Assembly (NCBI GenBank): GCA_008632985.1
Contig: QPGO01000068.1
Span: 62,001 to 126,000 of the forward strand
Origin: Psammoneis japonica
Taxonomy: Eukaryota
Length of the DNA: 64,000 nucleotides
Direction: 5' to 3'
Shown: positions 34,065 through 64,000 of the stretch, one piece after another
Layout of the letters: each line of letters opens with the position of its first letter
How positions within the stretch are numbered: the stretch's first letter is position 1
Notes under the pieces: generated by a model
The model's database searches: none
What the model was told of the DNA's origin: nothing
What the model saw: the letters and a program-made list of their open reading frames with translations, nothing else
Made by a program: the position numbers and the translations under genes

Positions 34065-34763
34065 TCAGAAAATGAATGGAACCAAAACCCACCTCTTCTC
34101 TGGAGATGGGCTACCCTTAGGAGCTGCGCCGTCTTTGTAGAGCTTGACATACTTCTCTTTGCGAGCCGTTGATAATTGAACTAACATGACAAAGCTCACA
34201 ACGAAGATAAAGATGGATGGGGGGGAGAAACCGGCAGCAAGAATGTATCCTATCCATGCCAACAATTCAAATGTGTAGTGCGGCGCAGCCAAATATAGAA
34301 ATGGCCCGCTGTAAGGGATCGTCCATTTGGTATCGGTAGGATCCTTGCGAAGTGACCGAAAATACGCGTGGCAGAGGAAGTTCCCAACTTCTCCAAGGCT
34401 AAACAATGCGAGACCCACCACAGCGATTGGGCTAAACACTTCAGTGGATGCTTGTTTGAGGCAAACTCCTGTGCATCCATTGATGGCGCCCCAAATAGAA
34501 TAATACAGGAAACACAGGACCGAATCACGTTCATTGGGAATCCCTTTCCCATGGTATCTGTTCAAGAAAACCACCTCGGCCGCGCGACGTAAGAAATGAA
34601 AATGCCAGCAAAATGCCAAAACAGCAGCAGGTGCCGCCGTTTCAGCCACCAAGGGTGAAGCCCAACCGTGGCACTGCTCGAGCTTTGTTTCTGCAAGGAA
34701 GTACAGACTCGGAGCAGCGAGATAGCCAAAGAGCCATGGGCAACGTGTCCAAACGATCGGCAT
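34065..34763 (-). CDS. Steroid 5-alpha-reductase / enoyl-CoA reductase-like membrane protein
   Basis: Hydrophobic ORF with HFLRRAAEV, GNFLCHAYFRSLR, APHYTFELLAWIG and RWVLVPFIF. The start is uncertain and may lie near 34830 via a frameshift. Confidence 0.8.
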   Translation of the reverse strand: MPIVWTRCPWLFGYLAAPSLYFLAETKLEQCHGWASPLVAETAAPAAVLAFCWHFHFLRRAAEVVFLNRYHGKGIPNERDSVLCFLYYSIWGAINGCTGVCLKQASTEVFSPIAVVGLALFSLGEVGNFLCHAYFRSLRKDPTDTKWTIPYSGPFLYLAAPHYTFELLAWIGYILAAGFSPPSIFIFVVSFVMLVQLSTARKEKYVKLYKDGAAPKGSPSPEKRWVLVPFIF

Positions 34764-34999
34764 TTCGTTTTGTGCAGGCGGGTACTCGGTTATGGTTCTC
34801 AGAAGAAACTACAATGGGAGCAAACAGAGATGAAAGAGGCACCGAACTTCACCTATCGTCTCCTTTTCGTCTTTTTTATGTACTGTACAGGTTACTTTCT
34901 TGCTGCAGAACAAAGCTGCACATGGCACACGCACACACGCAGACTTCGCACTTCACTTCTTCATTCATCACTCCGCATCACCTCTTATTCGCAGGTGGT

Positions 35000-37230: not shown

Positions 37231-37299
37231 TGCTCTGCTTTTGTTTACACTCGTTCTTCAAGCATGGTGCATGTGGAACCTGCAGCACATTTTCATCAA

Positions 37300-44950: not shown

Positions 44951-45315
44951 CCCTAAGGTAAAATAATGGCAACGCGATGTCACGCTGCACGCTGTTCTTG
45001 AATCAAAATTCAATTTCGTCACGACGGAACGAAACCCCAACCTTAACCTGACAACGATTTCTGAGTGAAAATCTGTGGCGAACCGGGGTATTTCAATTCG
45101 ATCGCGTGGTTGCGGCTAATATAGTTTGTGGAGAAGAAGGAGTACACCTAAATCACGGACATTGACCTGAAGAAGGCCTGGACGTCTAATCTGAGATGTA
45201 GCCTCCAGAGTCGTACTGAATATAATAGGTACTTACTAGCTTGTTTGCGTCTGCTCTCCAGATTCGATCTCTCTTTGAGAGAGAGAAGCAATTTCTTCTC
45301 ATCAAAGCAACCGGC

Positions 45316-46632
45316 TTACTTATTATACTCGCCCCTCCAACCTGGGACAACCCAGTCAATCACGCCGCCTTCTCCTACAACCAGGTTAATCCAGTCTTTC
45401 GTGGATGTTCCAGTTCCCGCAGAGGCGTCATTGAGTGCATTTTCCGCCGGACTAAGCGGTAATCGAAACGAAGAAAACAAACGGTGGGCGGCATTAAGGT
45501 ACCTGGATAAACTGCGTATTAGAATCTTCAAAACGAGCACTCACCAAGCATTATCAATTCGAGTAAAGTCGTCGAAATTCAATCCGGCCAATTTCGCGGC
45601 ATCTCGAACTGCCGGAATGGCAGCTTCAGGAAGCTGCGGTTCCTTGGCGTAAACAAAAGCGCCTTCGTAGTTACCTTGCAAAGTGTGCCCTTTATACGCA
45701 ACAAGTTTGAATGGAGGAATGTCTTTCTTCCCGTCTGATTCACCTAAAATGAACCAGTTTTCGTTAAACTTTAATCCATTCATTTTCCCCTCGGTGTGCA
45801 TGGTACGTCCCGTGGGGTTCTCTTGAGCATTTGCCGCGTCAACAATCATGTGCTCTGACAGGGCGTTTTCCCAAAACCCACCGCCAACTTCTTCAGGTCG
45901 ACGTACACGAAGAAAAATACCCATGTCGAGTTCGGATGCATCCGGTGCACCGTCGGAAGCTTTAAAAGTGTTGGTCTGGCAGTCAAACAAATCATAGTTC
46001 GGATTCAGACCGTCAGTCTTATACCAAGTGCCAACCAAGGATTTGGGGTCGAAATTCTTAATGGCGGTGGAGTATCCAACATTTTCCGCTGAGTTGTCGA
46101 TATTCTTTGGGACCTTGACGCATTCGTTTTCTTCGATCGTGCATGAGAGCCAGTTGTTGAGATCCTCAGACCCAAATTCGGCAAAACATCGTACTGCACA
46201 TGTCTGTTCTCCTTTGCATCTTCCTAGACAAGAAACACCCTTGATACCCCGAGGATTAGAAAAGAGATTTTTCGTTTGGTCACCGCATTTATTGATGAAG
46301 CAACCCACATCCGACTGTTCCATTTTATTGTCTTTTGCATACTCGGCAAATCCGTCGTAACTTGCGGTTGCGCTAGCAGGCGTGTCTGCAAAAGCCATGC
46401 TGCCTCCAAAAAACGTAGAGGCTGAAATTGCAACGCCAAGGCTCAAAGCTGCAGCAGCACGAATGCCCTTCTCAACCACCTCTTTGGGACCTTGACTGCT
46501 TGTTTTCTTGTCGTTGACCATGTTCATCGCACATGCCGACGACGCACGGCCTTTTGGTAGTAAAGGAGGAGCGAAAGCCAAAGCCTCGTGTGATGTCAAC
46601 AGGGCAAATAGAAAAGCAGATGCAAACTTCAT
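45316..46632 (-). CDS. VDL: Violaxanthin de-epoxidase-like (VDL) protein, plastid/thylakoid targeted
   Basis: Signal peptide plus AFAP, a Cys-rich domain (CFINKCGDQ..CLGRCKGEQTCAVRCFAEF..WLSCTIEENECV) and a VDE-type lipocalin (GTWYKTDGLNPNYDLFDCQ, ENWFILG, YEGAFVY). Intron 45452-45544 joins the last exon ending PGWRGEYNK. The VDL1/VDL2 subtype was not determined. Confidence 0.88.
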
Positions 46633-46949
46633 GATTTTTCAATGCAGCATATAAACCTTTCAACAAAAAGAGATGACCGTGATGCTCACCAACACACACA
46701 ATGCGTCTGCCACTTGGCGACTGGATGGTGGTGAAGATCGATGTGAGGGGTTGTCGGAGGGAACTTCAACAAAATTCAAAACGGGCGGGAAACGGCGCGC
46801 GAAGTAATCCATCACCGCGCGCTTTCGTACGTCAGCATTTGTCAGTTTGTCATCTTGGCTGTGAAAAGAGGTTCGTAGTGACCCAGCCTGTCAAATTGAC
46901 GGTGGCGGCGCGAGAGGAAAAGTTGGCGCATGTTGGTTGTGGGAAATTG

Positions 46950-48800
46950 AAGAAGATGCTTTCAAGATGGGGGAACGCCTCTGGATGGCTGCTGTCCAAA
47001 GCAGTTCTGTCCTCTAGTGCATTTGGATGTTTTGCAAGTGCAATTTTCTTCATGCACAAAAGAGAGGCTGGGTGCTCCCAAGAAAACCCCCGAGAGCATG
47101 CTCCGGTTGGCTGACAGATGCTTTTTCGGCTCAAATTTTGCACAAGATTTTTGGACAGCTGCTGCACAAAGGCACCCCTCAAAGTGCAACCCTCCCAATC
47201 TGCAAGTCTTCTGCATTTGTTGATGGGGCTGGAATCCAAGTGCACAGCAGCAAATGCCAAGAGATGTCTGGGGGGGGGGGGGGAGCTTCTCAAAACTCAA
47301 AAACGGCCACAACCTCTCAGCATTGTTGGAGTTCTGAGTTTGGAAAACCCTTTGAGTGCATCACATTGCACACACAGCACAGGTTGCAAGTTTTTGTCAA
47401 ACAGTGTGACGTGGTTTTTAAGTTGTGTTCTTTTCAACAAAGGACATGACTGTGCAGCACTTTTCAATCTCAACTCTGCCAAAACAAGAAAGTCTTGCAA
47501 GGTCACTCACATCAGCTCACACACAGTTTTTTCATCTTTGAACAGTGGCACAGACAAAAAGCCACCTTGCAACCATGATGTGCTGCCGTGCTGCCTGTGG
47601 GCCATGCTGTGCCTCCTCTTCAGCAGTGCACCACATCACGTGCATGTGCAAAAAACTTCCATGTGCTGCCACCACCCAGGCTCCACTCTTTGCAGAGCCT
47701 GGCACTGAGGCACTTCAGAGTTGACAATGTTGCAGCTGTCAAGGAGATTGGTCATGATCTAAAGTGAGGCAGCTTAAGAGTGCAAGGGCAGATCATGCTT
47801 CAGAGAAGAGCAAAAATGTGCTTGTCTTCAACAGCTTTGAGCAGTTGTTTCTTGAGCATGTTGGGCACAGTGTGCAAAACTGGAAGTGTTCCTTGGCCTT
47901 GTTGTGTTGACATTTTGGGGCTGCAGCATCTTGGGCAGCATTGGCGCTGGCTGCCAGCTGTGCTTCCAGGTGGTTGGGCATGACACAGGCAGCTGTGTTT
48001 GGCAAAATTGTGAGTTCAGGACGAGGCATGATGAGGGTAAAATGTGAAATGATGGCCATTGTGCCAATGACTTTCACATCCAGAGGGAGCTGCCATGGCT
48101 TTGGCACAAAGTTTGCCACCACATGGAATGGCAGGCAACTCTGCCAGACTTCAGCGTGGGTCCTTGATGAGCACAAGCACGGGATGTGGGTGCTGCATTG
48201 CAGACATGTTGGTGTCGACAATCATGCTGCATGTTGTGGTGGGTGGGTCATGTCATGGACATTCTTTGAAGGTGCCATTGCAAGGTGCAGGAGACACACA
48301 GGACCAGTGCTGTGGCTCTGCCAATGCAAAATGAAGAGCTGTGGGTGTGCAGCAGAGCAAGCCATGCCTGAAGAATGAGCTGAGCTGGTTGATGCATTTA
48401 AAAGTCATTGTCAGATTGGCACTGGAATGCACCACACCAATGTGGCCACTTGCAACACTGCTGGAGGTGTCGCGATCTTGTTGTTGCTTGTGCTCTTGAG
48501 ACAGGGGCTGGTCTCTCTGGGCCACCACTGGGGAGCAAACAACCATGTCTCCTCCTCAGTGGCACCAACAATGATGTGCACATGAAGCCAACTTTCAGGC
48601 TTTGCATGTGCTGATGCTCAGAGCAATCAGCAACTCCAGCTGTGCCACATTTCAAACAACATTTTGGGCAAAAAATGTTCGGGACCTTCAGCCCCCACAC
48701 AAGTTGCATTTTCAGAAATGTTGGTGGCTCAACAGAAAAGGTGGAGTGAGGAGCTGATGCCTGGATCATGCAGTTCCTCTCTTTGAAAATGACAAATGGA
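46950..48800 (-). mobile_element. Degenerate repeat containing a Ty1/copia (CoDi-like) gag-type fragment
   Basis: Minus strand reads LTILPNTAACVMPNH (~48.0 kb) and HTVPNMLKKQLLKAVEDKHIFAL (~47.81-47.88 kb), resembling diatom copia gag N-termini. TpA and CpG are nearly absent. Confidence 0.5.
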
Positions 48801-49443
48801 CAGGAAAGTGCACCATCCACTTCTTTCCCAGTGCCTCGAGGTTGGCTCTCCCGAAGTCCGGCTCGTCTTTTCGTGGGCTGGGGCGAGCGAGCACCTGCTG
48901 CAGCTCCATTTCCACATTGGCTCCTCCTCTTTTAGGTGGAACTCTCTAGATCGAAGTCTGAAACCGAAAGATTTTGGATTGCCGCCCTCGCTGCTGTCAG
49001 AAAATAGAGCCATGACGATTGCCTGCACCAATCATTTTGCTGCATTTTGTGCCGGGCGTTCGAATTGATTGCAACACATGACGGTCATTTCGGTGCGCAC
49101 TTTTGCGCGACCCACGCGACATGACTAACACGCGTCAGTGCGTGGTGCTGGTTGTTTTGCTTCTGACCGTTCTGTCTTCTGTGAGGTTTCATGAGGCTGT
49201 CTGTGCATGTTGATGTTGTCTGGTTGTGCATGTTGATGTTGTCTAAGGCAAGCTGCATTGGATTGAGTGAATGTGGAAATGTGCGAAATTTACGCATTGT
49301 TGCAGTTTCTTTGCCAAACAGTTGGTCCTCATTTGTGGCCATGCTCAATCCGCGGCGGCTCAAGTGAAAGTCCATGTGCATGTGTTTTGCGCATTGACGC
49401 GGTTGTCTTTGCCAAATGGTCATTTGTAATTTGCTCAATTCCA

Positions 49444-49903
49444 TCATTTCTGGCCACACTTCTTCTGAAGGGACTTTGCTTGCTCCTTCTCCTGCTCCGC
49501 CATCTCCTCCTTGGTGAAAAATCTCCCCGACCACTGTGGAGTCACCGCTGCACATGCTGCCTTTAGCTCCTCCATGGTTGAACCATCCTTGGGTGCGACC
49601 GTTGTTTCCACATGATGACTGTCCGCTGTCGTGTTGTCTTGCACAAGCACAGAAGTGACATCAAAATTTCCCAAGGTGAGGTCAAACGCCGCTCTTGCTT
49701 CTTCCAAGGTGATCTCCTCTTCGTCTTCCTCATTCATCAATGACTGAAGAAGTTCCGCACGTGTCTGCACCTTTTTCTTGTCCTCACCAGTTTTCTTTGG
49801 CCCGTCTGCCTTCTTTGTTTGTTGTTGCAAATCCATGTTTTCTCTGTTGCTACGTTTTCTGTGATGGCTGCGTTCGCGTTTCTTGGTTTGTTGGTTAAAA
49901 TCC
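49444..49903 (-). CDS. Hypothetical charged protein downstream of Rep/Hel (possibly degenerate)
   Basis: Open frame MDFNQQTKK..MDLQQQTKK..EEDEEEITLEEARAAFDLTLGNF; no recognisable domain. Confidence 0.35.
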
Positions 49904-50052
49904 ATTTGACGTTGTGTGACGCATGTGCAGATTTCTGCGCAATGTGCTGATCTAATCGAAGTGTTCCATTTTACGAAAATTTCCGCATTTTTACGGTTGG
50001 GGTCGCCAAACAGTTGCACAGTGGTTGAGCATCCTAATCTAATGTTTGCGTG

Positions 50053-53000
50053 CTACATTGACATTTCTGCGTGCTGTTGCTGAGAAAAATGCGTGGCGCT
50101 TCTCTCCTTCATGAGTCTTGTCAAGGCTTCGTAGCCTTCTGGGACCTTGCATTTTTGCAGGTCCTTGCTCAGTGGCTTTCGCATGAACAGCCCTTCTCTG
50201 GTCTTTACTCTGGAGAGCACAACATGCACCCAATTCTGAGTGTAGCTCCAAGAGTGCACAAACAACTGCGGGACTCCACTCCCTTGCAGTTTGTGCCCTG
50301 CAGTGGCATTGTTGATGACAAACGGCAGCTGGGTTGCCTTCAGTTGGAAAGTGTGCCTTTGTTTGTCGCCTTCTTCTAAAATTAGGCTGGGCTTGGCGAT
50401 GCAAGCCCTGAAAGCATTTGTTTTTGGCTCAACTAAAAACTTCGCGAGGTCGATGCTTTTGTTGCAGTGTTCCAATGCAACGTGGTCTACCTGACTGGCA
50501 AGCACAGCAGGAATGCCAATGTTGTTGTCTAAAGTTGCCAGTCTTGGTTCCTGTCCTGGTTTGAGAACGACCTTGTCAACAGTGGCTTGCGTTCCGTTTG
50601 CTTGACCGTTTGCTGCATTTTCGTTGAAAGGTGTCATGACTCTGCATCTTCTGTAAATTCGTAAGACTGGATCCATTCTTCCTGATTGCATGACAACGTC
50701 TCCTTCACCACAGTTGTTCCAGAAGCTGTTGTAAACCGGAAATGGTTGGTAGAGTCTCGTGCCATTCTGCACCTGCAAGTCGTCACTGAAAATCAACATT
50801 GAGTCAAGGACGTCTCCATCTCTTCCATGCAGTGTTTCTGCTCTTTTTCGAATGGGCCAGTGTCAATTGCATCTCTGTCCTTATTTGCGCACGCAGCATG
50901 GCGGAGGTCACTGGGCAGATCATCTTCATTCTGAACCACTCATTCGTTGATGTGCTCTGTGTCGTCAACTGTGATCTTACCAGTGCGGAATCTCTTGAGC
51001 AGTTTTCCCCATGATGGATCGTCTTTAAACCTGTGCACACCACGAAGTTCTGTGTGGCAGTTGATCCACTCGTGAAACTCGGGACACACATCTTTGTGTG
51101 GTGGTTTCACTCCTTTTCCGACTGGTTCTAGTTGCCTGAGGTCACCTGCGAAAACAATGTTGACACCACCGCATGGCTTGCTCAATTCGCTCTTCAACAC
51201 TGTTAAATTCTCATGGAGTTTTTCTAGTTCTCTCTTGCTTGCAAAAGAAATCTCGTCTGCCGCCGAAAGTCTCGTGTCTGACCATGCTTCAATTTGCTCT
51301 TTGGTCATTTGCTTTCTTCTCATGAGGTGTGCAACTCGGTGGATTGTGTCCCCTTTGAGAACAGTCGCAGCCACTCCGGTCAGTGCAGTCACTCTGATTG
51401 TGCTTGTTGTGAACGGCTGCTCAACAAGCGAGCAATGCTCTCTTCCGCATTCCACGACGAGGTCTGTCATGGTTGATTTGCCACTTCCACCTGCACCATG
51501 TAAAAAACACACAAGTTGCAACGTTCTGCATCTTTGCACTTCCACGAGTTTCTTCAATCGGTGAAGGTTTGTTGCGAATTCGTGTCTGCCATTTCTCCTG
51601 TCAAGTCCATTGCGTGACATCTTGTCTTGAAGAGCGTCTTGGTGGTGAGTGAGCACAAAGGTTCCTGCTAGAATTTCAAAGGCACACTGCTGTTGCCCAT
51701 CCAGTCTTGCTTTCCTGGCCCAGTCTACGATGCTTGCTGCAGATCCGTTTGCTTGACGTGCATCGACGTGTTTTTCCAAACCTGTCACATCCTCAAACGA
51801 CCTTCTTGTTCTTTGCGTTCTAGTCAGTGTCACTCGAACAATGTCGTCTCTTGACAGTGGTCTGCTGTGGATGTGTTGTTGCACTCCTTCATTCTGGTCT
51901 TCCTCGTCGGTGTCATCGCCGCCCTCTAGATTCTCAAAAAGTTGTCGTTCATCAACCTGGCTTTCCTCGTTTGGTGGGTCAGTGTGCATGTCTGCCAAGC
52001 ATTTGCAACCACCCATGTGCAAACCTTTCTGTCTTGCACGTTTACCACTCAAATGCGCAGGAACAACTGCTTGGTCGCTCAACCCAATGTCATCGTCTTC
52101 TGGCTGCTCTGCCATTTCTTCCAAGAGTGCTTCCAGCAGTTGACCCTGAACGGCGCCTGAAAGACCTTCTTCCTCGTCACTTTTGCAACAGTCAAACGCA
52201 ACGTCAGCAGGTCTAAATTGCTCCATCTTTCTTTGCAGATCGTCAGATGTGCTTTTGAGACGAAGGCAGTTGGACTCAGCATCCTGCAGGTTCTGCAAGA
52301 AGTTCAAGTTTTCCTCTGCAATGACACCGGCTGCTGCGGAGAGTTGGAATTCATGCAGGCATGCATGGGTCATTGGTTTGAGTTCCGTCATTGTTCTGCA
52401 AGGTGCAAACAAGGCCAATGCCAACTTGCAGCACAATTCTTTGTCTGGTGTTGTTGGTTGCTGCGGATCTACAAGGCAACTGCCAAACTTGGCTGCATCA
52501 GGAAAATCACACTGAAGTGCTTTCAACAATCGCGGTTGCTGTCGCTGTCTGACACCTTGAAGAAACTCATTCTTCGTTGAATTGCAAGACGGGTGCCTGT
52601 GTGCTCTGTCATCAAACATCATCATGCCGTGTTCGTTTTTCCTTGTGTTGCAAAGAACTTCGCATTCACTAAAAAACGAAAACGGGCTGAGATTCTCCAG
52701 TGCTGTTGGACGACACAGGCAGTGCAAGGCCTGGCATTGGAAGAACGGTGCGTCGCCAAAACAGGCTACAGTCGCAGACACTTCATCTCTTTCTAGTGTG
52801 CTGACAATGTCTTTCAAGGGGCACCATGCGGTCAAATGAGATTCGATGAAACGGCTTCCATTCCTTGTCATGCAAGATGCAAGTGGTGGTCCAATGATGC
52901 TCATCTTGTCATGCGAGCAAGCACCCCACATGAGATGTCTGATTGCTTCCGATGCATCAGATGCGTGTTTCCGTAATTCCATTGCTGTCCTGTTCGTAGT

Positions 53001-55703
53001 TTGAAGCACTTCGTCGTACGATGCAGTGTCATCTTTCTGGGTGTCTTTTAGGATGCACTCAATCGTACACTGAGCAGATGGTCCAGGCATCAACAAAGCA
53101 ATGTTTGTGTTGCATGTCAGTTTTGATCTGCTTGTTGCAGGGCACGACACGTTTTGAAAAGCATCGTGCTTTCTCCTCTTTGGAACAACTTCCTTCACGC
53201 ACCGATGCGCAAAAGTTCCATCCCAGCTGAACCACTTTATCTGAGTGTCATCTGCGTTCCTTGCCAAATCATTTGGACACAAAGCAGCTGGTTGCCTGTG
53301 ATGGCAGTCACCCAGTTTGAGCTCCTCTTGTTTCCTTTTCCTTGACTGCGTGTCCAGTTCCTCGTGTGGGGTTTTTTTGTGCATTTTACGCAACTCCACG
53401 CATTTGGGAAAACACGACTTCGTAACGTGCATGTGATGGTTGTAAGCTGCGTCCGGTGTGCATGCCTCCATTGTCCCTTGCGGACCACTTCGCTGGCATT
53501 GTACACACATTGCTTTTAGTTGCTTTGCATGGTTGTCTGGATGGCGAGTCAGGCCAGGCACACGGTGCCGTGACTGTAAAAAGCTTTCTACAAACTCGAC
53601 GTTTGTCCAGCACTTGGTGCAGTGACGACAACAAGCAAACATTCCGTTCTTCGACTGCTGGCCGTCTTTGCGCCTCAGGTTTCTTAGCTGTTGGTCGTCT
53701 GCTGCTTTTGGAGAGGTGCGACACATTTTTGGCACTGTGCAGTCATGATCGAATGCTTCACGCAATGCGTCAGTGCTGAAGTCCTCGCTGCAGATTAATT
53801 CCGTGCTGCAGATCTTCTGAACTATGTTGGCAAGGCACTCAGCACCTTCACGTCGGATCTGTCTTGCTGGCGAATGCAGTTTCTCTCTTGCATTGTTGAT
53901 CGATGCGAACCAGATCTGCATGTGTCCGTGTGCTGCCAGACGTCCCTGCTCCTCAACTGCGGCTAAAAATGCGGCTGGCCTGCCAATGTAGAAGTTAAAG
54001 TTTTCTCTTGGTTGGTTGGCACTCAGATCCCAACCCACTGCCTCTTCTGTTGCAATGTCAAACAAGCACTCGAATGCAAAGGCTGTTAGACCGGGAAACT
54101 TTAGATGCAGTTCATTACGTTGCTCAGCCCTGCCAGCAAGAATTTCGTCCATCAGTTGTGTCACGTCTTCGTTTGGGTCCAGGATGACACCCGAGTGCAG
54201 TTGCACAAGAAACGAATTTGCATCGTCCGGACTGACGGTTAAGAAAATGCCACCCTGACCAAAATGATGCTGACAAGTTTCGGCGTTTCTCCTCATTTTC
54301 TTTGCTGCTTCGTCACTGTGTGGCAGAGATGCAGATGCAACGTCGAGTGTGCACAAAAAGTGGTGCCCGAGTCCACAATCTCTTCTCTTGCCCAAGTTGC
54401 GATCACAAACAGCTCTGTCCACATCATCCACTGTCAGTTTGTTTGCAAACTGTGCAGCCTGATTCTTGTCCCTGACTTTCCACCCTGCACTCTGTGGCAT
54501 CCTTTGCTTCATTGTCAAGTTGCAGCATGTTAACACGAAGAGCTGCTCGTGGAAGTGAGGCTGGGAAATCCGTGCCAAGTGGTCGGCAGAGTGTGCAAGG
54601 TTGGTGCCATCTGTGAGACTTCCGTCTTTCTTCATTCTCGTCTCATTGATTCCTCCTCTGCCAAAAGGAAACTGCAGCAGACACGCATTGATGAAGTTGT
54701 TGCCTTTGAAATCACTCGCAGATTCTTTAGACAACTGTGCTTGCACCTCTAAATCAAATCCATTGGCAGCAGCTTCGTGTGCAAGATCTTTGAAGCAGCC
54801 CAGGTTGCGCTGACCACCGGTCGCAGGAGACATGGTTCCATCAGGAAAGCAAATGTGAAATGACTCTGAGGTCTCAACATTCGCATTTTCTCCTTCTTCT
54901 TCGCTGGTGCTGTCGACAAGTGCGGGATTCCGCAGATTGCGCCTGGCTTCATCTAGATTTGTCTGTTGGCACACCCACTCTTGGTCATGGCACAACAGCC
55001 ATTCCATCGCCCTCAGCATGCAGTGCGTCCCAATTCTGTTCTTTGAACGCGCAAGTTGTCTTTGCTCCGGAGTCATCTTTCCAGTCATCAGTGCAATCAC
55101 ATTCTGATGTAAATTCAGTGCATCGAAGTGCACAACAGTTCTTACGATGCTTTGCATCTTGACTTTGTAGCATGTCAGACTTCCCCGAAGCTTCTTCTGT
55201 TTGCCGCCAAGGTGACTGAAGCAGCATCCGCATGTTTTCACTGGTGTGAGCATTGCTGATTCTGCTTCGGTCAGAGACAACAGTTCGTGCGGCGGGGTGC
55301 CAAAACAGCAGTTGTTCGCCATCGCGCACATTGGCGTGACAGCTCTTCCCAGGCTTCTTCGGCATTCGCTGCAGCAAGTGAATCCGTCGACGCGTCGTCT
55401 GTCTTCCTGCACTGCGCATTGGGCACGGGGAGAAAGCAGCAGGTCTTTGATCCAATCAGCATCTTCATGCTCTGCAGTGCAGCAGGACTTGAGACGATCA
55501 GATGTGCTGTTCCAGTCTGAAGGGGTGAGTGAGTTTCTTGCTGATTCCAATGTTTCGAGCGGCAAGTGGCAAACTTCTCTAGGTTTCAGCAGAACGTCAC
55601 AGACTGAACATGCGTGTGGTCTAAATTCTCCATCTCCATGTGGACAAAGCATCTCAAACTTTCTGTTGATTGCACTGCAAACACGGGAGTTGGCCTCGTC
55701 CAT
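50053..55703 (-). pseudogene. Helitron Rep-helicase (HUH replication initiator + PIF1 helicase), about 1900 aa, with one break near 50800-50940
   Basis: DUF6570-like PMCAMANNCCFGTPPHELLSLT; Rep motifs FGQGGIFLTVSPDD and VEEQGRLAAHGHMQIW; PIF1 motifs GAGGSGKST, TALTGVAATVLKGDTIH, DEISF, GGVNIVFAGDLRQLEPV, QLPF..ATAGHKLQG and HVVLSRV. Many conserved Tyr are replaced by Cys/His. Confidence 0.92.
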
Positions 55704-55789
55704 CTTGGTTTAAGATGACACTTTGACTCGACAAATTTCAAGAAGTCACTCAGCAAAAACAGTTGTTTTTTCAGTGCGATCACCGTGAA

Positions 55790-56470
55790 GCTGCGATCGG
55801 TGCTGTCCAATCACCACAGCAATGTGTGTTTTCTCACCACCTGCAGCACTGCGACTGGTGTCGTCCAGTCACCGCAGTGGTTCTGTCTGGTTGATCAACG
55901 AACCGCGTCGGTGCCATCCGTTCACCGCAGCGCTGTGTCGTCTTCTCACAACCTGTGCAATCAGGTCACTGTGAGTGCTGCGACTGGTGCTGTCCAGTCA
56001 CCGCAGCCGAGTTAATTGGTTGCTTGACGAACTGCGTCGGTGCCACCCGATCACCGCAGCGTTGTGTCGCGTTCTCACAACCTGTGCGATCAGGTCTCTG
56101 TGAGAGCTGCGACTGGTGTCGTCCAGTCACCGCAGCTGAGCTTGTGCGTCATCTCACAACCTGCATTACGAGGTGCAGCGCTGTGTTGTTTGCTCACAAC
56201 CTGTGCAATCAGGTCGCTGTGAGAGCTGCGACTGGTGTCGTCCAGTCACCGCAGCCAAGTGAATTGGTTGCTTGACGAACTGCGTCGGTGCCATCCGATC
56301 ACCGCAGCGTTGTGTCGTGTTCTCACAACCTGTGCGATCAGGTCTCTGTGAGAGCTGCAACTGGTGTCGTCCAGTCACCGCAGCTGAGCTTGTGCGTTGT
56401 CTCACAACCTGCGTTGCCAGGTCACTGTGAGAACTGAGAACTGCGATCGGTGTGGCCCAATCACCGTAGT
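55790..56470. repeat. Tandem array of hairpin-forming units, period ~119-129 bp
   Basis: The core GACTGG-N6-CCAGTCACCGCAG starts at 55853, 55982, 56111, 56230 and 56359 (AACTGG variant). It alternates with CGTCGGTGCCAYCCGWTCACCGCAG and CTCACAACCTGTGCRATCAGGTC..TGTGAG units. Confidence 0.92.
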
Positions 56471-56626
56471 TGGATGCTTTTCGTTTCCCTTTGCGCAAAG
56501 GTTCTGTCACAAAAAAGTGAGACGAAAGTGTGCCTCTTTCACCTCAACGGAAGAGTGACGTGTGCGTTCCTCCCACATCCTTCTTCGCACCAGACGTGCA
56601 ATGTCCTGCTTAGTTTCGTCGACGTT

Positions 56627-56735
56627 GAACATCCCATGGGACAAGATTTGGATCTTGTTCAAGTTGTTTCGACCATCTGCTCTGAACATTCCATGGGGCA
56701 AGATTCGGATCTTGTTCAAGTTGTTTCGGCAATCT
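56627..56735. repeat. ~57-bp tandem duplication
   Basis: GAACATYCCATGGGRCAAGATTYGGATCTTGTTCAAGTTGTTTCG occurs twice. Confidence 0.85.
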
Positions 56736-57270
56736 TGGTGGTGGGCGCAGCTTTGCGCAAATTCCGCAGAATCACGCTTTGACGAGTGGCGGGGCAGTTG
56801 AGTCAGTTGTGTGGCAATGACAATGCGATTGACATCATTCGTGTTTCCAAAGTGCGCGCGAATCCTCCAAATGGGTGATGGGCCCACCTCAGCCAACTGC
56901 CAGCACAGTGGTGACAGCGATGGCGTCGACCGTTTGGCGACTAGATTTCGTGCGCGATGGCCGCGCGGCAGCAACGGCTGAAATGCACATGAAGCACGGA
57001 CGGAATTGCACGTGATTTTACGCATTTTCAGCAAATTGGTGCGACTTTGCGTGCTCCGATCCTTGCATCTGTTTTGTTCAAATTGAATCCATGCACCACT
57101 TGCAAGTGCTGACACCTGGAAGGTTGCCTTGTTGCAGTTCGACGTGTTTGGATCTAGTTGCTGACGTTGCCAGTTCTCCTTGGCATGATGTGCGCAGCTC
57201 TGCTGGGTCTTTCTTGGCACTTCTGAACGATTGCACTTTTTGTTCCCACAATTTCTCTCCGACTGATTCG

Positions 57271-58143
57271 ATGGCATGCAAAAGAAACACAACGACCTCC
57301 CCGGCTGCGAAAGCCAAAGTCGCCGAAACCAAACAGAAGAAGGCAAAGACGAAGTTTTCTGATGCTCTGTTGAAGAAACTGGGTCCGCCCCGCAAGACCA
57401 ACGGCTTGACCGACGACGACCTTAAACCGGAAGACCACCTTGCCAAGCACGGGTTCAAGCTTTCCAAATCTGCCGGTTCTGACGATGGCAGCCATTCCGA
57501 TGAGGACGCCCTCCTGCGCTGCACCACCATCACTGTCGGCCGCAAGAAAGGCGTTGTTTTTCGTCTCCAAGCCAAGAGTCCCCTTTTGACTGATGTTTGG
57601 TCGGAGAAGGTTCTGTTTGACAACCTTCGCAGCAGGACTCCGTGGGCGGTTCAAGTCGGATTCCACCCTTGTGCTGGCAGGTGGGTTCACGAAGGCGAGT
57701 TGCAGACGAACGCCAAGAACTGCGCCGTGCGTCTCTTCTTCATCTTCCTCGAAGAAGTCCCAACCGATGCTAAAGTGCGCGGCCTTGGGAAGTGCATTGC
57801 GAAGCAGCTCAATGATGACCCTGAGAACAACACCGAGGTCTTCGTTGAAGACGACTTCTTCTGGATGAAGGATGCTGTTTGGTCTGAAGTGATCGGCAAC
57901 GAGGCAGCGCTTGCCGAGCTTCAGAAGGAAGGTGGTCAGTTTCACATCGGTTGGTGTGCCCAAAACAAGAACTCACTTCACAGTTGCTTCTACGAGGGGT
58001 CGTTGCCTGTGGAACTCTGTCGTCTCATTGGAGCTCCGGCAGAAGAAGCTGGAGAAGAGGCCGACGATGATGTCGAGCTCAACTGTGAAGTTGACCTGAA
58101 CGTCGATGACGACTTGGTGCTTCAGGACAGCGACGAAGACTGA
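57271..58143 (+). CDS. Hypothetical protein with a basic N-terminus, globular core and acidic C-terminal tail
   Basis: 290-codon open frame from MACKRNTTTSPAAKAK to DDDLVLQDSDED with coding-like third-position C/G bias; no domain recognised. Confidence 0.65.
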   Translation: MACKRNTTTSPAAKAKVAETKQKKAKTKFSDALLKKLGPPRKTNGLTDDDLKPEDHLAKHGFKLSKSAGSDDGSHSDEDALLRCTTITVGRKKGVVFRLQAKSPLLTDVWSEKVLFDNLRSRTPWAVQVGFHPCAGRWVHEGELQTNAKNCAVRLFFIFLEEVPTDAKVRGLGKCIAKQLNDDPENNTEVFVEDDFFWMKDAVWSEVIGNEAALAELQKEGGQFHIGWCAQNKNSLHSCFYEGSLPVELCRLIGAPAEEAGEEADDDVELNCEVDLNVDDDLVLQDSDED

Positions 58144-58230
58144 GTTGTTTTTTTTTTTGCCGGTGCAGTGTAAATTTGCAAATGTTTGGCAAACCAAGTG
58201 TTGATTGCAACTCAGCTTTCCTCTGTCTCT

Positions 58231-59217
58231 TCAAGTGTGTGCCATCTCCGACGACAACTTGTCGTTACTGCGAAGCAATGGCGAATTGAGCAGAGCAACT
58301 AGCGTGTGACGTCCAGTGCAGTGACAGCAAAAAAACAGTTCAGTTGAGTTCTTGAGCAAAATTGGCCATTTCGCGATGGGCAAATGCTTCCGTTCCAAGT
58401 GTGTCAGAGTGGGACGTCGCATGTGCTGGCTGGTTGACTGAGAAGTCTCCTCTTTCTTGGCGCACTTGTGGAAGACGAGATGTTTCACGTCTCCGCTGTG
58501 CCACAAAAAGTCGCCATCATGGCAATCCGCCGTGAAGGACTCGCACATCCACTCTCCCGCGTGCGACGCGAACAGCGGATCTAGCGCCACCACCACGGTC
58601 CCAGCACGACACAACTTCGAAAGCATCGCCTCTGCCTTCTGCTGTGTGTTCTTGTCATCGACCATGCGGGAGTTGCAGTTGTTGAAGAACACCTTGAGTC
58701 CTTTCTTTTTCCACAAAGGAGCCAGCCTCTCGTCCAAGAATGACTTGTTGATCAACTCTAACCCGCCGTTCGAGCGAAGGCCAGCACGATGAGCCCAACG
58801 TACAGCCTCTTGGTGACGATCGTGGTCGGCCTCGATGCTCACCACGGTGCAACGGCGACGAAGTAACTTGAGCCCGATGCTGGGTCCGGCAACTCCCCCG
58901 CCCATGTCGACAGATGCATCACAGGTGTGATTCACGCCAAGAAGGCGTTCGTTCAAAAACACTTCGCTGCTCAAAGCGAAGCCAACTTCGCCGCCGTGCG
59001 AAGATCCGCTTCCGTCTCCGGAGACACGCCTGCTCTGGAACGCGGAGTCCGGAGCCGTTTGAAGACAAAACTCCCCAACACTTCTGCAACGATGGTTCAT
59101 CGCATCCAACCTTGTGGCAACATCAACCTTGCTTGCAGCGGGTTCGACCAGACATCGCGTTTCCAAACCAAACTGTGACGTGCACAGAATGCGTAAAATT
59201 ACCGTCGCGCCCTCCAT
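58231..59217 (-). CDS. DOT1-like (histone H3K79-type) class I SAM-dependent methyltransferase, mutated
   Basis: Ordered motifs SHGGEV (cf. YGE), DASVDMGGGVAG (cf. DVFVDLGSGVG), VVSIEA (cf. GIEI), NKSFLD, VFFNNCN (cf. IFVNNF), LCRAGTVVVAL (cf. LKPGTRIVSL) and FLWHS (cf. VSWT). Confidence 0.7.
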   Translation of the reverse strand: MEGATVILRILCTSQFGLETRCLVEPAASKVDVATRLDAMNHRCRSVGEFCLQTAPDSAFQSRRVSGDGSGSSHGGEVGFALSSEVFLNERLLGVNHTCDASVDMGGGVAGPSIGLKLLRRRCTVVSIEADHDRHQEAVRWAHRAGLRSNGGLELINKSFLDERLAPLWKKKGLKVFFNNCNSRMVDDKNTQQKAEAMLSKLCRAGTVVVALDPLFASHAGEWMCESFTADCHDGDFLWHSGDVKHLVFHKCAKKEETSQSTSQHMRRPTLTHLERKHLPIAKWPILLKNSTELFFCCHCTGRHTLVALLNSPLLRSNDKLSSEMAHT

Positions 59218-59692
59218 GCGGCGAAATTTTCAAACGCGGCGTGCTGCCTCCACCTGCGCATGGAGCGACGTGTGGAGTCATTTTGAACAGATGTGTGGAC
59301 GCGTTGAAACAATAAGATGCCTTTGGGCGACAAAATTTGTTTTGAATCTCGGCCTGCTTCTCATCGTCACCGCACTTGCACATCCGTGTAATTCAAACAC
59401 ACGAGCTGGCATGGCACGTGACACACTTCTACGCGAGAACTCGTGCTGAGATTGCCGTGGGATGATCCTCCCTCCGCGGAGACAAAAACAACGCGACAAC
59501 ACTTCCGTCATCATGTTTTGAAACACATTTCAAATTGAGACACACCATGTCGCAACTACCTCGTGCCTCGCTGCGTCGTCCTGCCAACGACAAGCACTTG
59601 TCGTGATCGAGTTACAGCCGGTCTCGACAGTGTGGGGGTTTGGGACGTGCAGCTCGCAGCCCGACAACAAGCAAACACTTCTCGCGATCAGG

Positions 59693-59858
59693 TTTCGACC
59701 CCACTCCCCTGGAGTCCGCTGGTCCCTGTCAACAGAGTTTTGCTTTGGGTGCTCTTGAGGCAACGGAAAGCAGACACATCTCTTGATTGGGTTTTGACCC
59801 CACTCCCCTGGAGTCCGCCGGTCCCTGTCGACAGAGTTCTGCTTTGGGCACTGTTGAG
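59693..59858. repeat. ~66-bp direct repeat, two copies ~99 bp apart, between the divergent DOT1-like and dioxygenase genes
   Basis: TTTYGACCCCACTCCCCTGGAGTCCGCYGGTCCCTGTCRACAGAGTTYTGCTTTGGG starts at ~59693 and ~59793. Confidence 0.88.
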
Positions 59859-59936
59859 ACGACAGTGACAGTGTCAAGCAGCAGAACATTTACCGGCAAG
59901 TTCGCACACACGTTCTCTGCGAACACCGCATCGTCA

Positions 59937-60980
59937 ATGCGCACCAGGACACACGAGAATGTGTTGAGGGCTCAACCGCCACTTCGTAAGGCCCACCGCA
60001 GCCGCAGGCGAATCCGCAGCCGCGCCAGCAGGAAAACATCCAAGATTGCTCGCCTCGTTCCACTCGCACCGTGCGCCACTGAGAGTCTCTCCATGCACTG
60101 CGTAGCCAACCGCACTCTAGTTTATAACGGCGACTACACTCAGCCTGCACCACCTTGTCTTGCTGACATTGACTTTGCCAAATTGGCTCCTCTGGTCGTC
60201 TGTGACCCTGTGCTCGATCTGAAGCCTTTCTTTGGCTTGGACGGTTGCCACTGCAACAACACCTGCACCCTGCTGCCGCGTTCTGCTGTGGTGTTCAGCT
60301 CCCCCAACCCAGCAGAACCAGTTGCTCAGTGCCGAGCGCTCGAAGCACTGGAATGCTGCACCGCCCAGTCCACCGTGCGCGGCAAACAACGCGTTGCCTT
60401 CATGGAGATGGACAGGAGCAAGCATTCCACGATTGGCCTGGCTGCCACGAGATGCACTTGAATTTCTTGCAAGCAGCCTGGCACAGCCGACCAACACACT
60501 CACCACCTCACCAGACTTCTTTCACGCATGGAGCACCTTGTCAATGAGTGCGTGGACTGTGCCATCCTCAAGGGCATCGCTCGTGTCAAAAAGTTTCACA
60601 ACTGGAAATCCCTGGTGCGGTCAGATGGCATTTTCTCCTCTCTGGCGGCTGGGCGCAATGTCTTCCTCAACGCCCATCAGGACCAGGACTTCTTCCTGTC
60701 AGCAGTCACCGTGGTGGGAGTCCCTCCGTCCGGCAGCCACACCATGAATGACGGGATTGTGGCGTGCTTCTGCTTCCCTGCCGAAGGCATCTCCGTTGCA
60801 CTCCGGCTTGGTGATGTCATCATTTTTAACCCCACCAAGCACCACTGCATCTCCAGCAGGACAAACTCAAACGACGAGTTCTTCTGCATGTCTCTCTACC
60901 TGAAGAGTGCTGCAGTGGGCAAGAACAACAATTCAGTCCCCCTTTCTCTAGAGGAAGAGACCATTCTCAGGCGACTGTGA
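59937..60980 (+). CDS. Fe(II)/2OG-type dioxygenase resembling the TET/JBP family, with a frameshift near 60460
   Basis: IFSSLAAGRNVFLNAHQDQDF (HxD), FCFPAEGISVALRLGDVIIFNPTKHHC (distal His) and CMSLYLK. The upstream frame (VRGKQRVAF..KHSTIGLAATR) abuts it and probably encodes the N-terminal half. Confidence 0.65.
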
Positions 60981-61185
60981 CAGCACAAAATGACTTGCTA
61001 AATTTGCGTAAATTTGCTGACTTTCTGTGCTCAGGCGACTGTGCAGGTGCCTGCCAATTTGCCAGATTTGCGCAAATTTACCGACTTTCTGTTCTTCCTC
61101 GTTCCCATTTTTCGAACCACAACTGGGGCCACGCCTTTCCAACCAATGCTGCAGTTTCGCTGAAAAACACCAACACACTGTGCTG

Positions 61186-62799
61186 CTAATTTACAGAGCA
61201 CACTACACGGCAAATGTTTTGCCAGACGCAGAGCTTCTCCCCCCCCGACTTGGGGAGCAGACGCGATTTCTTCTTCCGATTCATGGCACCCGACGTCGCC
61301 TTCCTCTTCTTCTTCTTCTTCTCCGATTTGTCCAAGTTGCATCTGCAGAGAAATTCCTCCCCGGGCATGATTCGCTTCGTGACTGTCAAGCACCCGTCAT
61401 TGTAGAACTTGCAGTTGTTGTCCGCATGTTGGCTTGCCTTGATCTTCTTCTTGTCCTTGAACGACTCGGTGGCATCGTTCACGCAGTGCATTCCGAGGTA
61501 GAGTGGATGGGAATTCTTGTTCCCTGGACCGCTAAAATCAAGCGGTTTTGGCTCCACTGTGACGCAGTGGCCCTCACTGTCACGGATGGTGGAGCAGCAC
61601 ATGCTGTGGTCTTCTCCAAACTTGCTGTCGTGGTCGCACCACGAGTGGCTCCTCGTCGCACCGGGCACCCTGGGGCCCACGTAGATTCCAACCGTGCTGC
61701 CTTTCTGGAACTGGCGCAAAGCAAAAAAACCAATGCCTGCGCCCCTCCGTTGCGATGCGCGTAGCTCGCCCACCTCCACCTCCTTGGGGCCTGCGGAGCA
61801 AACGGACTTTTCGAGGTAAAACAACGCAGGTTGAAGTGACACGGCGCCTCATCCAAATGTGCACACTTCTGCACTTGCTCTCTTCACGAGGCAGACCAGT
61901 GCGAGCGACCACCCCACTTCGAAAGCCTCGACGGTGGTCTTGAACACTTTGTTGCTCTTCGGCGTCGAGTCTGGGATGCCCCTCTCGCCGACTTCCGTGC
62001 GGTGCCTCCACACCCACTTGCAGTGTTCGCCGTGAGCATTCGCGACGGCTTCAGGGTCGCTCCTGATGCACCCCAGTTCTCCCAGCGCGGGGAACCAGAG
62101 GTCGGGATCATTCGGTGCATCCTTCATCAGGCACATGGACTCCTGGAAATCATTGGATTTTTCGTGCCGCAACACCCAGTCCCACAAGTCGAATGACGGA
62201 TCGTTGGGGTCCGGAAATTGCTTTCCTTCTTCTTCCTCTTCCGCCGTTGCTTTCGCGACCACTTTGGCCGCGGGCTTGGCTGCCTCCTCGCTTTTGCCGC
62301 TGCAAAAAGGTGGGACCTCCGGTTTCACAAAGGTGGCCTGATCACCCACCAACTCGATCTTGCAACCGGCCTCAAGGAGCTGCTCGGCGGTGTGACCCAG
62401 CTGCTGTGCTTCATTCCAACCACAAATTTGAAAGGTTGGCTCCGGCGGCACGGCTTTCTCCCTCTTTTCAGTTTGGGACTGCGCCGGCTTCTCTGACATC
62501 CTTGCGCGTTCGGACTCGACGGACACACCCTCGGCACTTCCCTCGGCGCCAAGTGCAGTCATGGCAGCTGCCGCCGCGCCTTCGGCACCCGTGAGTTCTG
62601 CCATGACTTCCGGAGCTGCTGCATCCTCTGCTTTGCCAGACGCAACGATGTTGTCCTCCGCCATTCTAGCGCCGTGATGACAGAGCTGCACTGACTGCTG
62701 TGTGGTGTGCTGCTTTGTTCCAGCTGTTGGCGATCCACATCCTTCTGCGCACGCAAACGCATGACACTTTGCACCAAATTCCACGCAGCGCGTCTGCAC
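61186..62799 (-). CDS. SET-domain protein (putative lysine methyltransferase) with a long N-terminal region and one in-frame TGA at 61849-61851
   Basis: Motifs SQRRGAGIGFFALRQFQKGSTVGIYVG, LGMHCVND and NCKFYNDGCLTVTKRIMPGEEFLCRC, followed by a Lys-rich tail. ORFs 61849-62799 and 61186-61842 are in the same frame. Confidence 0.8.
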
Positions 62800-63083
62800 C
62801 TGTCTGCGTCCGTCTTCACTGCTGCGCGCACTGCGGTGCTGCAGCGCACCCTTTCAAACCTTCATCAATGTTTGTTTTTTCCTTCCTTTTCCTTTTCTCT
62901 TCTTCTTCTATCTGGCTGGGAGGAACTGCTGGATAGCCGGTGTATTCGATTAAGGGTGGTCGGTTGCTACTTTTTTAAGCTCGAATTCGGCCGAACAGCT
63001 CGCATTTTGCATGATTTTTCCTGAATTTCACCGTGCTTCACCGTGGTGAAAACAACAAGCCATGAGTCTGTGACGGAGGTGGT

Positions 63084-63158
63084 CCGTCTACCAACTCTCA
63101 TTTATTTTATGTTTGTTATGTATCAAAGATTGTATATACATGAAAAGTTGGTAGACGG
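63084..63158. repeat. 13-bp perfect inverted repeat around an AT-rich spacer
   Basis: CCGTCTACCAACT (63084-63096) and AGTTGGTAGACGG (63146-63158). Confidence 0.85.
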
Positions 63159-63664
63159 CAAACTACGTTTTTGAGAAACATCGATGATTGTCATCATCGT
63201 CGTGCTTCGGTCGCGGTGGTGATGGTTCTCGTTTTCGTGCGCGATCGGGTGTGACTATGAATAATTCTTGTATTCAAAAATAAACACTATAAAAAACCTT
63301 ATTCAAATGCAACGGTAATTTTAGGATAAACGCGGGGATGACCCCCCTTAAGCATTTTTCTATTCCGGGTTTTACTATTTTATGAGTCATCAAACTCAAA
63401 ACTTCGCTCTCCGAAAAGCTTCGCAACTCGCAACTCAAAATACCGGTACCGGTACACAATAAATAATACACAACACACGACACACAACACACAGTACACA
63501 ACACAGAACAAACAGACGCTCATCTAGTTACCGTAGCAATCCTTCCTCCTCTCTCTTTTCTTTTGTTTCTCTCTCCCCTTCCCCCCCTTCTTTTGTTATT
63601 CCGCCAATAAGACAACAAAAAATTGCCCTCGTGTTCGCGATTTGATCTGGATCTGAACGCAACC

Positions 63665-64000
63665 ATGAGCATGCACGGAAAGCAAAGGAACAGCAGCACT
63701 GTTTATGCGGCGGTGCCCACGGCTGGGTCGAATCATGACGACCATGACAACGAATTGAAGCTGGCATCTCCATCTAGCCGCGGTTTTATGCAGTCTCGAA
63801 AGCTTGTTTTCTTGGTCCGGTTGTTGATTGTTGGATTCATTTCGAGTGGCCTTTACTATCAACGTGATTCTTGGTGGCCATCACGTTATCATGGACATCC
63901 AACAAAACTGCCCGGTGGTGGTCGTGATTGGTTGATCAACGTGGTGGATGGCACCATTGTGTGCAAGCATGAAACTGATTTAGTCCTCGGCGTGGATGCA
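63665..64000 (+). CDS. 5' part of a probable type II membrane protein, running off the window
   Basis: Open from ATG 63665 to the window end: MSMHGKQ..., a hydrophobic span LVFLVRLLIVGFISSGLYY, then GGGRDWLINVVDGTIVCKHETDLVLGV (ricin-B/beta-trefoil-like). TpA and Tyr usage is normal. Confidence 0.6.
   Translation, partial: MSMHGKQRNSSTVYAAVPTAGSNHDDHDNELKLASPSSRGFMQSRKLVFLVRLLIVGFISSGLYYQRDSWWPSRYHGHPTKLPGGGRDWLINVVDGTIVCKHETDLVLGVDA

Follow-up and report, generated by a model that had tools for sequence, protein, structure and literature searches.

A stretch of 64,000 nucleotides from Psammoneis japonica (assembly GCA_008632985.1, contig QPGO01000068.1, positions 62,001 to 126,000), referred to below as the window, contains near its right end a block that appears to be one copy of a Helitron, a rolling-circle transposon. 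In this block, a gene for the Helitron protein Rep/Hel is found together with four open reading frames (ORFs), designated A to D and collectively termed cargo. The four ORFs are located upstream of Rep/Hel and form two convergent pairs, A(+)/B(-) and C(+)/D(-), as had been described in a first inspection of the letters alone (the sequence-only reading). The features of the block are the following:

48913..63050, minus strand: probable multi-copy Helitron unit with approximate ends, recognised as a sharp-edged, TpA-depleted and CpG-retaining block and by read depth
50062..55703, minus strand: Rep/Hel pseudogene with HUH nuclease domain and Pif1-type helicase, YxxxY changed to CxxxC, one frame change
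55849..56388, no strand: 129-bp tandem array of 4.3 copies in which short palindromes recur, in the interval from the Rep/Hel start to ORF A
57091..58143, plus strand: ORF A, accessory protein without known family, homologues upstream of Rep/Hel in relatives
58231..59217, minus strand: ORF B, probably class I S-adenosylmethionine (SAM)-methyltransferase-like, weak and mutated ('DOT1-like' in the sequence-only reading)
59669..59848, no strand: 99-bp direct repeat (1.8 copies) in the intergenic region from which B and C diverge
59787..60980, plus strand: ORF C, predicted TET/JBP-like 2-oxoglutarate/Fe(II) dioxygenase pseudogene, in-frame TGA at 60459-60461
61186..62799, minus strand: ORF D, probable SET-like pseudogene, in-frame TGA at 61849-61851, SET-like domain in 61189-61848
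63006..63353, no strand: AT-rich repeated segment on the 5' side of the element, TpA not depleted (observed/expected ratio, O/E, 0.72)

Dinucleotide profiles delimit the block clearly. Between 48913 and 63050 the O/E values were 0.16 for TpA and 0.82 for CpG, compared to 0.55 and 1.04 in host-like DNA at 8000-34500 in the same profile, while TG and CA reached 1.45 and 1.50 in the element. The edges are abrupt, at about 48.9 kb and about 63.05 kb, and define a unit of about 14.2-14.4 kb, cargo included. Autonomous Helitrons of about 14 kb are within the usual range, and the designation of the element as 'giant' was overstated at this size.

To assess repetition, the public run X1, which contains 0.49 of the words sampled from 52000-61900, was used. 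Contigs of this run, 4398 in number, were placed on 45000-64000 and their word depth was summed. The resulting values do not represent a strict copy number, and X1 is possibly the source of the assembly itself:

45000-48803, left flank: 64-68
every bin of 48804-62751: 2286-5784
Rep/Hel bins: 2724-5250
cargo bins: 2286-4241
bin 62752-63385: 8792
63386-64000, right flank: 57

By this measure of summed contigs, the block is 36-90 times as deep as its flanks, Rep/Hel and cargo alike. Single-copy contigs of X1 end at 48942 and resume at 63324, and the adjoining relic at 47000-48803 shows single-copy depth, unlike the element. No second copy of the element was found within the 64-kb window. It appears likely from these data that the block is one copy of a high-copy, autonomous-type Helitron and that the cargo genes are contained in the unit. 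For the position of the cargo inside the element, three observations are relevant: the depth is equally high on Rep/Hel and cargo, genes related to A and the SET-like ORF recur in relatives, and B and C are located between D and A. The proposal of the sequence-only reading that the cargo is part of a rolling-circle element is supported by them.

The identification of the Rep/Hel gene as a Rep(HUH)/PIF1 gene was confirmed. Its open frame, 50940-55703(-), specifies 1587 amino acids with matches to the Pfam models DUF6570, Helitron_like_N (E 2.9e-8), PIF1 (E 7.4e-13), and AAA_30 (E 4.5e-11). A word-indexed search yielded 48 homologues, mostly 1850-1980 amino acids long, with the same domains and a top identity of 44%. 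When two intact homologues were used in tblastn searches, the gene was found to span 55682 down to 50062, with a frame change near 50820-50853, and 1863 of the 1866 residues of homologue P0001 were covered on the window. Since coverage extends down to 50062, the gene is essentially full length. The HGH motif aligns with HxH in seven homologues and Walker A, GxxGSGKS, is kept in the helicase part. The catalytic YxxxY, present in all seven homologues shown, reads CxxxC in the window copy (residues 879 and 883). For rolling-circle transposition, an element depends on Rep/Hel, which nicks and unwinds it. By its sequence, the window copy is a dead member of a Helitron family in which the two catalytic tyrosines are present but have been lost here. 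Relatives were not detected in IMG/VR, which was scanned with Rep/Hel and with the ORF B alignment.

Scanning metagenome contigs with the Rep/Hel alignment revealed 76 loci, in which cargo was searched by tblastn and with profiles. Five loci of the close clade, with Rep/Hel identities to the window of 39-48%, have at least 1 kb upstream (L001, L005, L009, L013, and L014). Homologues of ORF A are located upstream of Rep/Hel in L001, L005, and L013. On the same side of Rep/Hel, L005 carries a SET-like homologue, L013 carries two, and L014 has a fragment of one at the edge of the contig. A gene of one or both kinds is therefore present in four out of five of these loci, the exception, L009, being itself hypermutated as described below. 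In L013, a SET-like gene and ORF A are convergent and only 187 bp apart, and the divergent C/B pair of the window occupies exactly this gap. By position, B and C thus lie inside the element, and they were probably acquired later by the Helitron family of this genome. Single-copy cargo genes that are syntenic in relatives without Rep/Hel, Rep/Hel genes that never occur with cargo, and termini that exclude the 57-63 kb region, which the sequence-only reading had named as findings that would speak against it, were not encountered.

Among the cargo genes, ORF C gave the clearest result. With its stop codon read through as X, 723 representative proteins were retrieved at E of 0.001 or less, the closest being P0052 (42% identity, E 2.8e-65). 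None of the 20 family members examined was matched by a dioxygenase model of Pfam, Tet_JBP included, nor was either half of ORF C. In an alignment of 40 sequences, H204, D206 (near-invariant), D208, and H260 are conserved and produce an HxD...H pattern, which in ORF C is still present as HQD and a distal His. P0052 was modelled with AlphaFold2, at a mean predicted local distance difference test (pLDDT) value of 88.1. In a Foldseek search with this model, ranks 1 to 26 were all TET/JBP proteins (CcTet, NgTET1, TET2, CMD1), CcTet being the best at E 9e-9. VIA-align placed TET/JBP proteins on all of the top 16 ranks, with Z values from 13.5 to 18.2: TET2 18.2 (root mean square deviation 4.4, 255 aligned), CMD1 15.7, NgTET1 15.4, and CcTet 14.8; AlkB/FTO followed as the next tier at 12.2 or less. 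A TET/JBP-like nature of the predicted ORF C protein, as proposed from the sequence, is thus well supported by the model at the level of the fold, where alone the relationship is seen.

For ORF D, several weak matches point in the same direction. Two relatives gave hits to Pfam SET, L005 at E 2.3e-4 (22.0 bits) and L013 at E 0.0089 (16.9 bits), compared to a cut-off of 22.4 bits. Including that of ORF D itself, these matches span the model from positions 1-2 to 102-104 of 105. A joint profile of the SET-like family matches the SET domains of KMT2C and KMT2D, with E from 8.8e-4 (KMT2C) to 8.5e-3, and stretches of the form GxG...G(Y)Y(V)G and GEEL are conserved among its members. Judged by the agreement of these hits, ORF D probably contains a SET domain. 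Both in-frame stops, that of C and that of D, are TGA, for which a change of CGA to TGA via CpG decay is a plausible origin.

The N-terminus of ORF A is basic and of low complexity, and is followed by a conserved domain of about 200 amino acids and an acidic tail. Sequence and profile searches of Pfam, NCBIfam, and PDB gave no match to it. ORF B exhibits a GxGxG-type motif and an FFNNY stretch, which we take to resemble a DOT1 motif. Its top PDB profile match is an O-methyltransferase, weak at E 0.1, in the region from motif I to beta-2. Pfam and NCBIfam did not match ORF B, and the Pfam DOT1 model matched neither ORF B nor its homologue P0051 even at E values up to 10. The DOT1-like label was thus not verified, and 'methyltransferase-like' is preferred here, the protein probably resembling class I SAM-methyltransferases. 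When PDB sequences were searched with ORFs C, B, and D, with P0051, and with the profiles A2 and A5, nothing meaningful was revealed, and the NCBIfam scan gave nothing significant. Comparisons with hhalign among families A, B, C, D, and the ORF families X1 to X5 of a more distant Rep/Hel clade indicated no kinship, all probabilities being below 1%.

The composition of the block, described by the sequence-only reading as a common TpA-poor and CpG-retaining signature, was reproduced by measurement. It is not a native property of the element. From the codons, it is best read as the result of mutations that have damaged a still fairly young copy, with TpA changed to TpG or CpA. Comparison of Rep/Hel to 12 intact homologues showed that 21 of 22 conserved Tyr columns are lost, 13 being Cys (TGC or TGT) and four His (CAC). 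Conserved Arg residues are replaced by His, Gln, or Cys, as is expected from CpG decay. The same is seen for Tyr in the cargo: all three conserved Tyr of ORF A are now Cys; at the nine Tyr positions of P0051, ORF B has five Cys, one His, two Leu, and one Phe; and three of four and eight of ten conserved Tyr are lost in ORFs C and D, respectively. Over the five genes, which are found in both orientations, lost Tyr codons read TGY (Cys) 24 times and CAY (His) ten times. The excess of Cys hints, in a small sample, at a preference for A to G changes on the coding (non-template) strand. About 320 TpA sites are estimated to be lost, since 131 are left and about 450 would be present at a host-like O/E.

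Variation among copies in run X1 conforms to this picture. Transitions account for 306 of 328 variant places, and TG, CA, CG, and TA are interconverted at 35 of the 40 places with the best support among 356. At five of these dinucleotides, CA in the window corresponds to TG in other copies or the reverse, which is what independent changes of one ancestral TpA or CpG would leave. At places where the window has CG, other copies already have CA or TG, and again the reverse is also found; that CpG is retained in the window copy is best attributed to its young age. An artefact of base calling at modified bases was considered as the source of TG and CA and rejected, because k-mer contigs of X1 contain TG and CA mixed and show no differences over 2.2 kb of flank, although X1 may be the assembly source.

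The consequences for the genes are severe. Judged by its codons, the copy is inactivated: all five genes are nearly devoid of Tyr, and two TGA stops, one frameshift, and partial CpG decay are present. Frames nevertheless stay open, since TAA and TAG stops disappear together with TpA. The numerous long and overlapping ORFs seen in all frames result from this loss, and the genes, noted from the sequence as apparently intronless, are indeed open frames but owe their openness in part to it.

One metagenome locus shows the same process. In L009 (positions 1-7761), O/E is 0.03 for TpA and 0.30 for CpG, and Tyr makes up a fraction of 0.001 of a fully open Rep/Hel frame of 1882 amino acids. In the remaining 75 of the 76 loci, TpA O/E values are 0.36-0.82, and the Tyr content of relatives is normal. 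By its composition, the TpA process has also acted in the organism behind L009, be it the same species or another.

Similar blocks occur elsewhere in the window. At 1-7000, 35000-44400, and 47000-48900, O/E is 0.03-0.06 for TpA, 0.08-0.18 for CpG, and 1.7-2.0 for TG and CA. These depleted blocks contain no Pfam domain of their own; of 17 ORFs scanned, one matched, a host-like steroid reductase. They look like older relics in which TpA hypermutation and CpG decay have both run to completion. The steroid 5-alpha-reductase-like gene, 34068-34808(-) (Steroid_dh, E 4e-17), borders the relics and has normal TpA and CpG values. Normal values are also found for a second host-like gene at the border of the relics, a violaxanthin de-epoxidase gene at 45541-46632(-) (VDE, E 9e-71; Tyr content 0.022), and from the presence of this gene beside the element the host can be recognised as a photosynthetic eukaryote.

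The region between ORF A and Rep/Hel had been described as a hairpin array. The 129-bp tandem repeat there contains short palindromes and, folded as single-stranded DNA, reached z = -5.4, with none of 100 shuffles folding as well; inverted repeats of at least 14 bp were not found in it. Another genomic copy lacks 253 bp at this place (joint from 56166 to 56420 in X1). At the other end, the AT-rich segment 63006-63353 is part of the deepest bin (8792) and is characterised by many variable joints and 11 loose-ended contigs. A 12-bp inverted repeat is readable at about 63084-63095 and about 63147-63158. The segment may be a 5' terminal region common to the copies, a separate or adjacent repeat, or a preferred target. 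A joint from 48498 to 63006, which skips 14507 bp (depth 68, side of 21 letters), was considered as an empty-site allele. It was rejected because the contig 47270-48942, which spans the junction, has the full depth of single-copy DNA and because 48498-48900 does not belong to a repeat.

Single components of this arrangement have counterparts in other transposons. In the available part of Kojima 2025 (PMC12730594), TET/JBP genes are described in 11 lineages of fungal DNA transposons, including Helitron1 and Helitron2, and escape from methylation-based silencing is proposed. The same text cites SET genes on HarbingerS and MuDR elements of Phytophthora, and VANC anti-silencing proteins of the VANDAL (MuDR) elements of Arabidopsis (PMC12730594). 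With TET/JBP on fungal Helitrons and SET on Phytophthora elements, the combination, of which the sequence-only reading knew no description, is not without precedent. As far as described there, the fungal Helitrons likewise are Rep/Hel elements with a separate TET/JBP dioxygenase gene; here, however, the host is a photosynthetic protist, Pfam Tet_JBP does not match, and SET-like and methyltransferase-like genes and ORF A are present in addition. The Phytophthora elements, in the same account, are also DNA transposons with a SET methyltransferase gene, but they are DDE transposons, whereas a Helitron is found here, with a SET-like gene below the Pfam cut-off beside a TET-like gene. SET-encoding HarbingerS/MuDR transposons of Phytophthora were reportedly presented by Kojima and Jurka in Repbase Reports in 2014. 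VANC is a sequence-specific DNA-binding protein and is not known to be an enzyme. VANDAL elements share with the present case the idea of a transposon-encoded factor that undoes its own epigenetic silencing, but VANC has no homology to the proteins of this Helitron. In the literature searched, no description was found of this gene combination or of TET/JBP on an algal Helitron. A 2024 paper in PNAS is said to deal with 5-hydroxymethyluracil and transposon silencing in dinoflagellates. The combination is a new variation on the published transposon-borne TET/JBP and SET genes and not a new category.

For the hypermutation, the closest parallel is a preprint of 2026 on the chlorarachniophyte Bigelowiella natans (10.64898/2026.01.13.699255). 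Its available text reports that two viral regions integrated in the genome undergo TpA to TpG/CpA changes at a rate of about 6e-7 per site and generation, and further describes 124 TpA-depleted clusters enriched in transposon domains, and an ADAT2-like adenine deaminase as the proposed agent (10.64898/2026.01.13.699255). The signature, as given there, is the same: loss of TpA, gain of TpG and CpA, and almost only transitions, in foreign DNA. The differences to that text are that the inserts of B. natans are single-copy ones of nucleocytoplasmic large DNA viruses (NCLDV) or virophages, whereas a multi-copy Helitron is affected here, that depletion is far deeper here (O/E 0.03-0.16), and that older relics are also depleted of CpG. 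Neither Helitrons nor CpG is mentioned in the part of the preprint available. Repeat-induced point mutation (RIP) of fungi is similar in being a transition hypermutation of one dinucleotide which kills repeats but keeps their full length. It is opposite in direction: according to the available text of PMC12730594, C is turned into T by RIP, mostly in CpA, so that TpA and stop codons arise, while here TpA is destroyed, TAA and TAG stops are removed, and frames stay open. A literature search for TpA-loss hypermutation in diatoms turned up only fungal RIP, and B. natans is the only organism found in print with this hypermutation.

Based on the gene content, the following mechanism may be envisaged. 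Proteins such as Rep/Hel, with an HUH nuclease, two catalytic tyrosines, and a Pif1-type helicase, move the element by rolling circle. The family carries accessory genes upstream of Rep/Hel, A and the SET-like gene being common to related Helitrons, and in the family of this genome the divergent pair of TET/JBP-like gene and ORF B is located between these two. Intact masters would express the SET-like protein, and perhaps B, to change histone methylation on their own copies, and the TET/JBP-like enzyme to change DNA modification on them. The purpose would most likely be to counter host silencing, or else to set the chromatin state of the element. We infer that the accessory proteins alter histone and DNA marks in order to resist silencing. 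Going further, the four-gene epigenetic module could be a counter-defence to which the host answers with the TpA mutator, a kind of RIP in reverse, in an arms race; we offer this extension tentatively, as the less probable course of events. Such a mutator would be especially lethal to rolling-circle elements, since TpA occurs in either codon for Tyr, which leaves the catalytic tyrosines of Rep no way to evade the process. That TET/JBP-like enzymes themselves oxidise thymine at TpA, so that mispairing of the product and not an adenine deaminase gives T to C changes, is very improbable; the composition is no evidence that the TET-like enzyme works.

A number of results weigh against the interpretation of the block as a high-copy Helitron with a chromatin-modifying module. 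On reading the ends of this copy, no convincing Helitron termini (5'-TC, CTRR-3', 3' hairpin, A|T target) were recognised. Summed depth is not a strict copy number, and X1 is perhaps the assembly source. Most TpA losses seem to be common to at least 90% of the X1 depth, since of the 328 variant places only 127 show a change in the direction of A or T with a share of at least 10%, compared to the about 320 TpA sites estimated to be lost. This is difficult to reconcile with amplification of the family prior to its mutation. The family would accordingly have been amplified either from a progenitor already devoid of Tyr, by trans-mobilisation or segmental duplication, or by intact masters that remain below the 10% threshold. 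With respect to the cargo, the Pfam SET match of ORF D itself (E 0.0075, 17.1 bits) is below the cut-off of 22.4, so that the SET label stands on weak, if agreeing, matches. ORF B has a single homologue, P0051 (54% identity), in an index of 5.8 billion clusters, and its AlphaFold2 model, calculated from two sequences, is unusable (pLDDT 34). Neither ORF B nor ORF C was found in any of the 76 Rep/Hel loci from metagenomes, few of which have enough flank; the two may have been captured recently and may play no role in the element. Finally, in a more distant Rep/Hel clade (L032, L038, L039, L042, L048, L066, L069, and L071), different, unrelated conserved accessory ORFs are located upstream: ORF family X1, about 240-510 amino acids, on the same strand just upstream of Rep/Hel in eight loci, and ORF family X2, about 300-560 amino acids, on the opposite strand in five. 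Neither family has a Pfam match or profile similarity to A-D.

Some of these observations are also accommodated by passive capture, in which at least B and C would be host genes taken up by chance and useless to the element, so that no toolkit exists. Gene capture by Helitrons is well established, the large family of ORF C would offer plentiful donor genes, and the absence of B and C from the 76 related loci, together with the single homologue of B, conforms to it. On the other hand, all four cargo ORFs are full length, in their own orientation, and not fragments, A and the SET-like gene are kept beside Rep/Hel at 39-48% Rep/Hel identity, which indicates long retention, and the repeated acquisition of TET/JBP by 11 fungal transposon lineages, as described in the available part of PMC12730594, suggests a benefit to elements. 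Passive capture is in our opinion rather unlikely. A comparable, low probability is assigned to the possibility that the accessory proteins serve otherwise, in insertion targeting, in self-limiting expression with repressive marks set by SET, or in marking DNA for the replication cycle. It draws on the observation that chromatin domains borne by transposons are often readers or tethers for target choice (10.1101/2021.11.30.470311); in the available text of Grau-Bové et al. (10.1101/2021.11.30.470311), 823 gene models are reported to fuse chromatin and transposon domains, SET included. The present data do not separate writer from eraser or activation from repression, which leaves room for such functions.

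Two further explanations concern the block as such. The cargo could be a separate element or gene cluster adjoining the Helitron, its composition stemming from a common heterochromatic neighbourhood. The difference in CpG O/E between Rep/Hel (0.67) and cargo (0.90), the TpA depletion of neighbouring relics, and the undefined termini would fit this. They are outweighed by the depth, which is equally high on Rep/Hel and cargo but single-copy in the relic 47000-48803, and by the genes themselves, since A and the SET-like gene are found beside Rep/Hel in four independent contigs and B and C are enclosed by D and A; the explanation is highly improbable. Still less credit is given to a TpA-poor composition native to the element, caused for instance by foreign origin or codon usage. 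The element does differ in composition from host genes, but in each of the five genes TGY or CAY is found in place of conserved Tyr codons, relatives have normal Tyr and, in 75 of 76 loci, TpA O/E values of 0.36-0.82, and copies differ by CA versus TG at the same dinucleotide. A Helitron unit with its own cargo, damaged in this copy by TpA hypermutation, is the preferred interpretation.

With regard to hypermutation, the element provides a codon-level record of TpA to TpG/CpA changes on a multi-copy transposon. The process erases Tyr codons and hence the catalytic sites of HUH-Y proteins, and by removing TAA and TAG it leaves dead genes with long frames that mislead ORF annotation; neither point is contained in the available part of the B. 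natans preprint. Relatives of the element are present in many aquatic metagenomes, and intact homologues exist (L013, L005, P0051, and P0052). The ways in which selfish DNA fights silencing are illustrated by transposons with chromatin- or DNA-modification enzymes of their own. Each of the known cases concerns a single gene, namely TET/JBP for fungal, SET for oomycete, and VANC for plant elements, whereas here a Helitron family of a photosynthetic protist apparently carries up to three enzyme-like genes together with a conserved protein of unknown nature.

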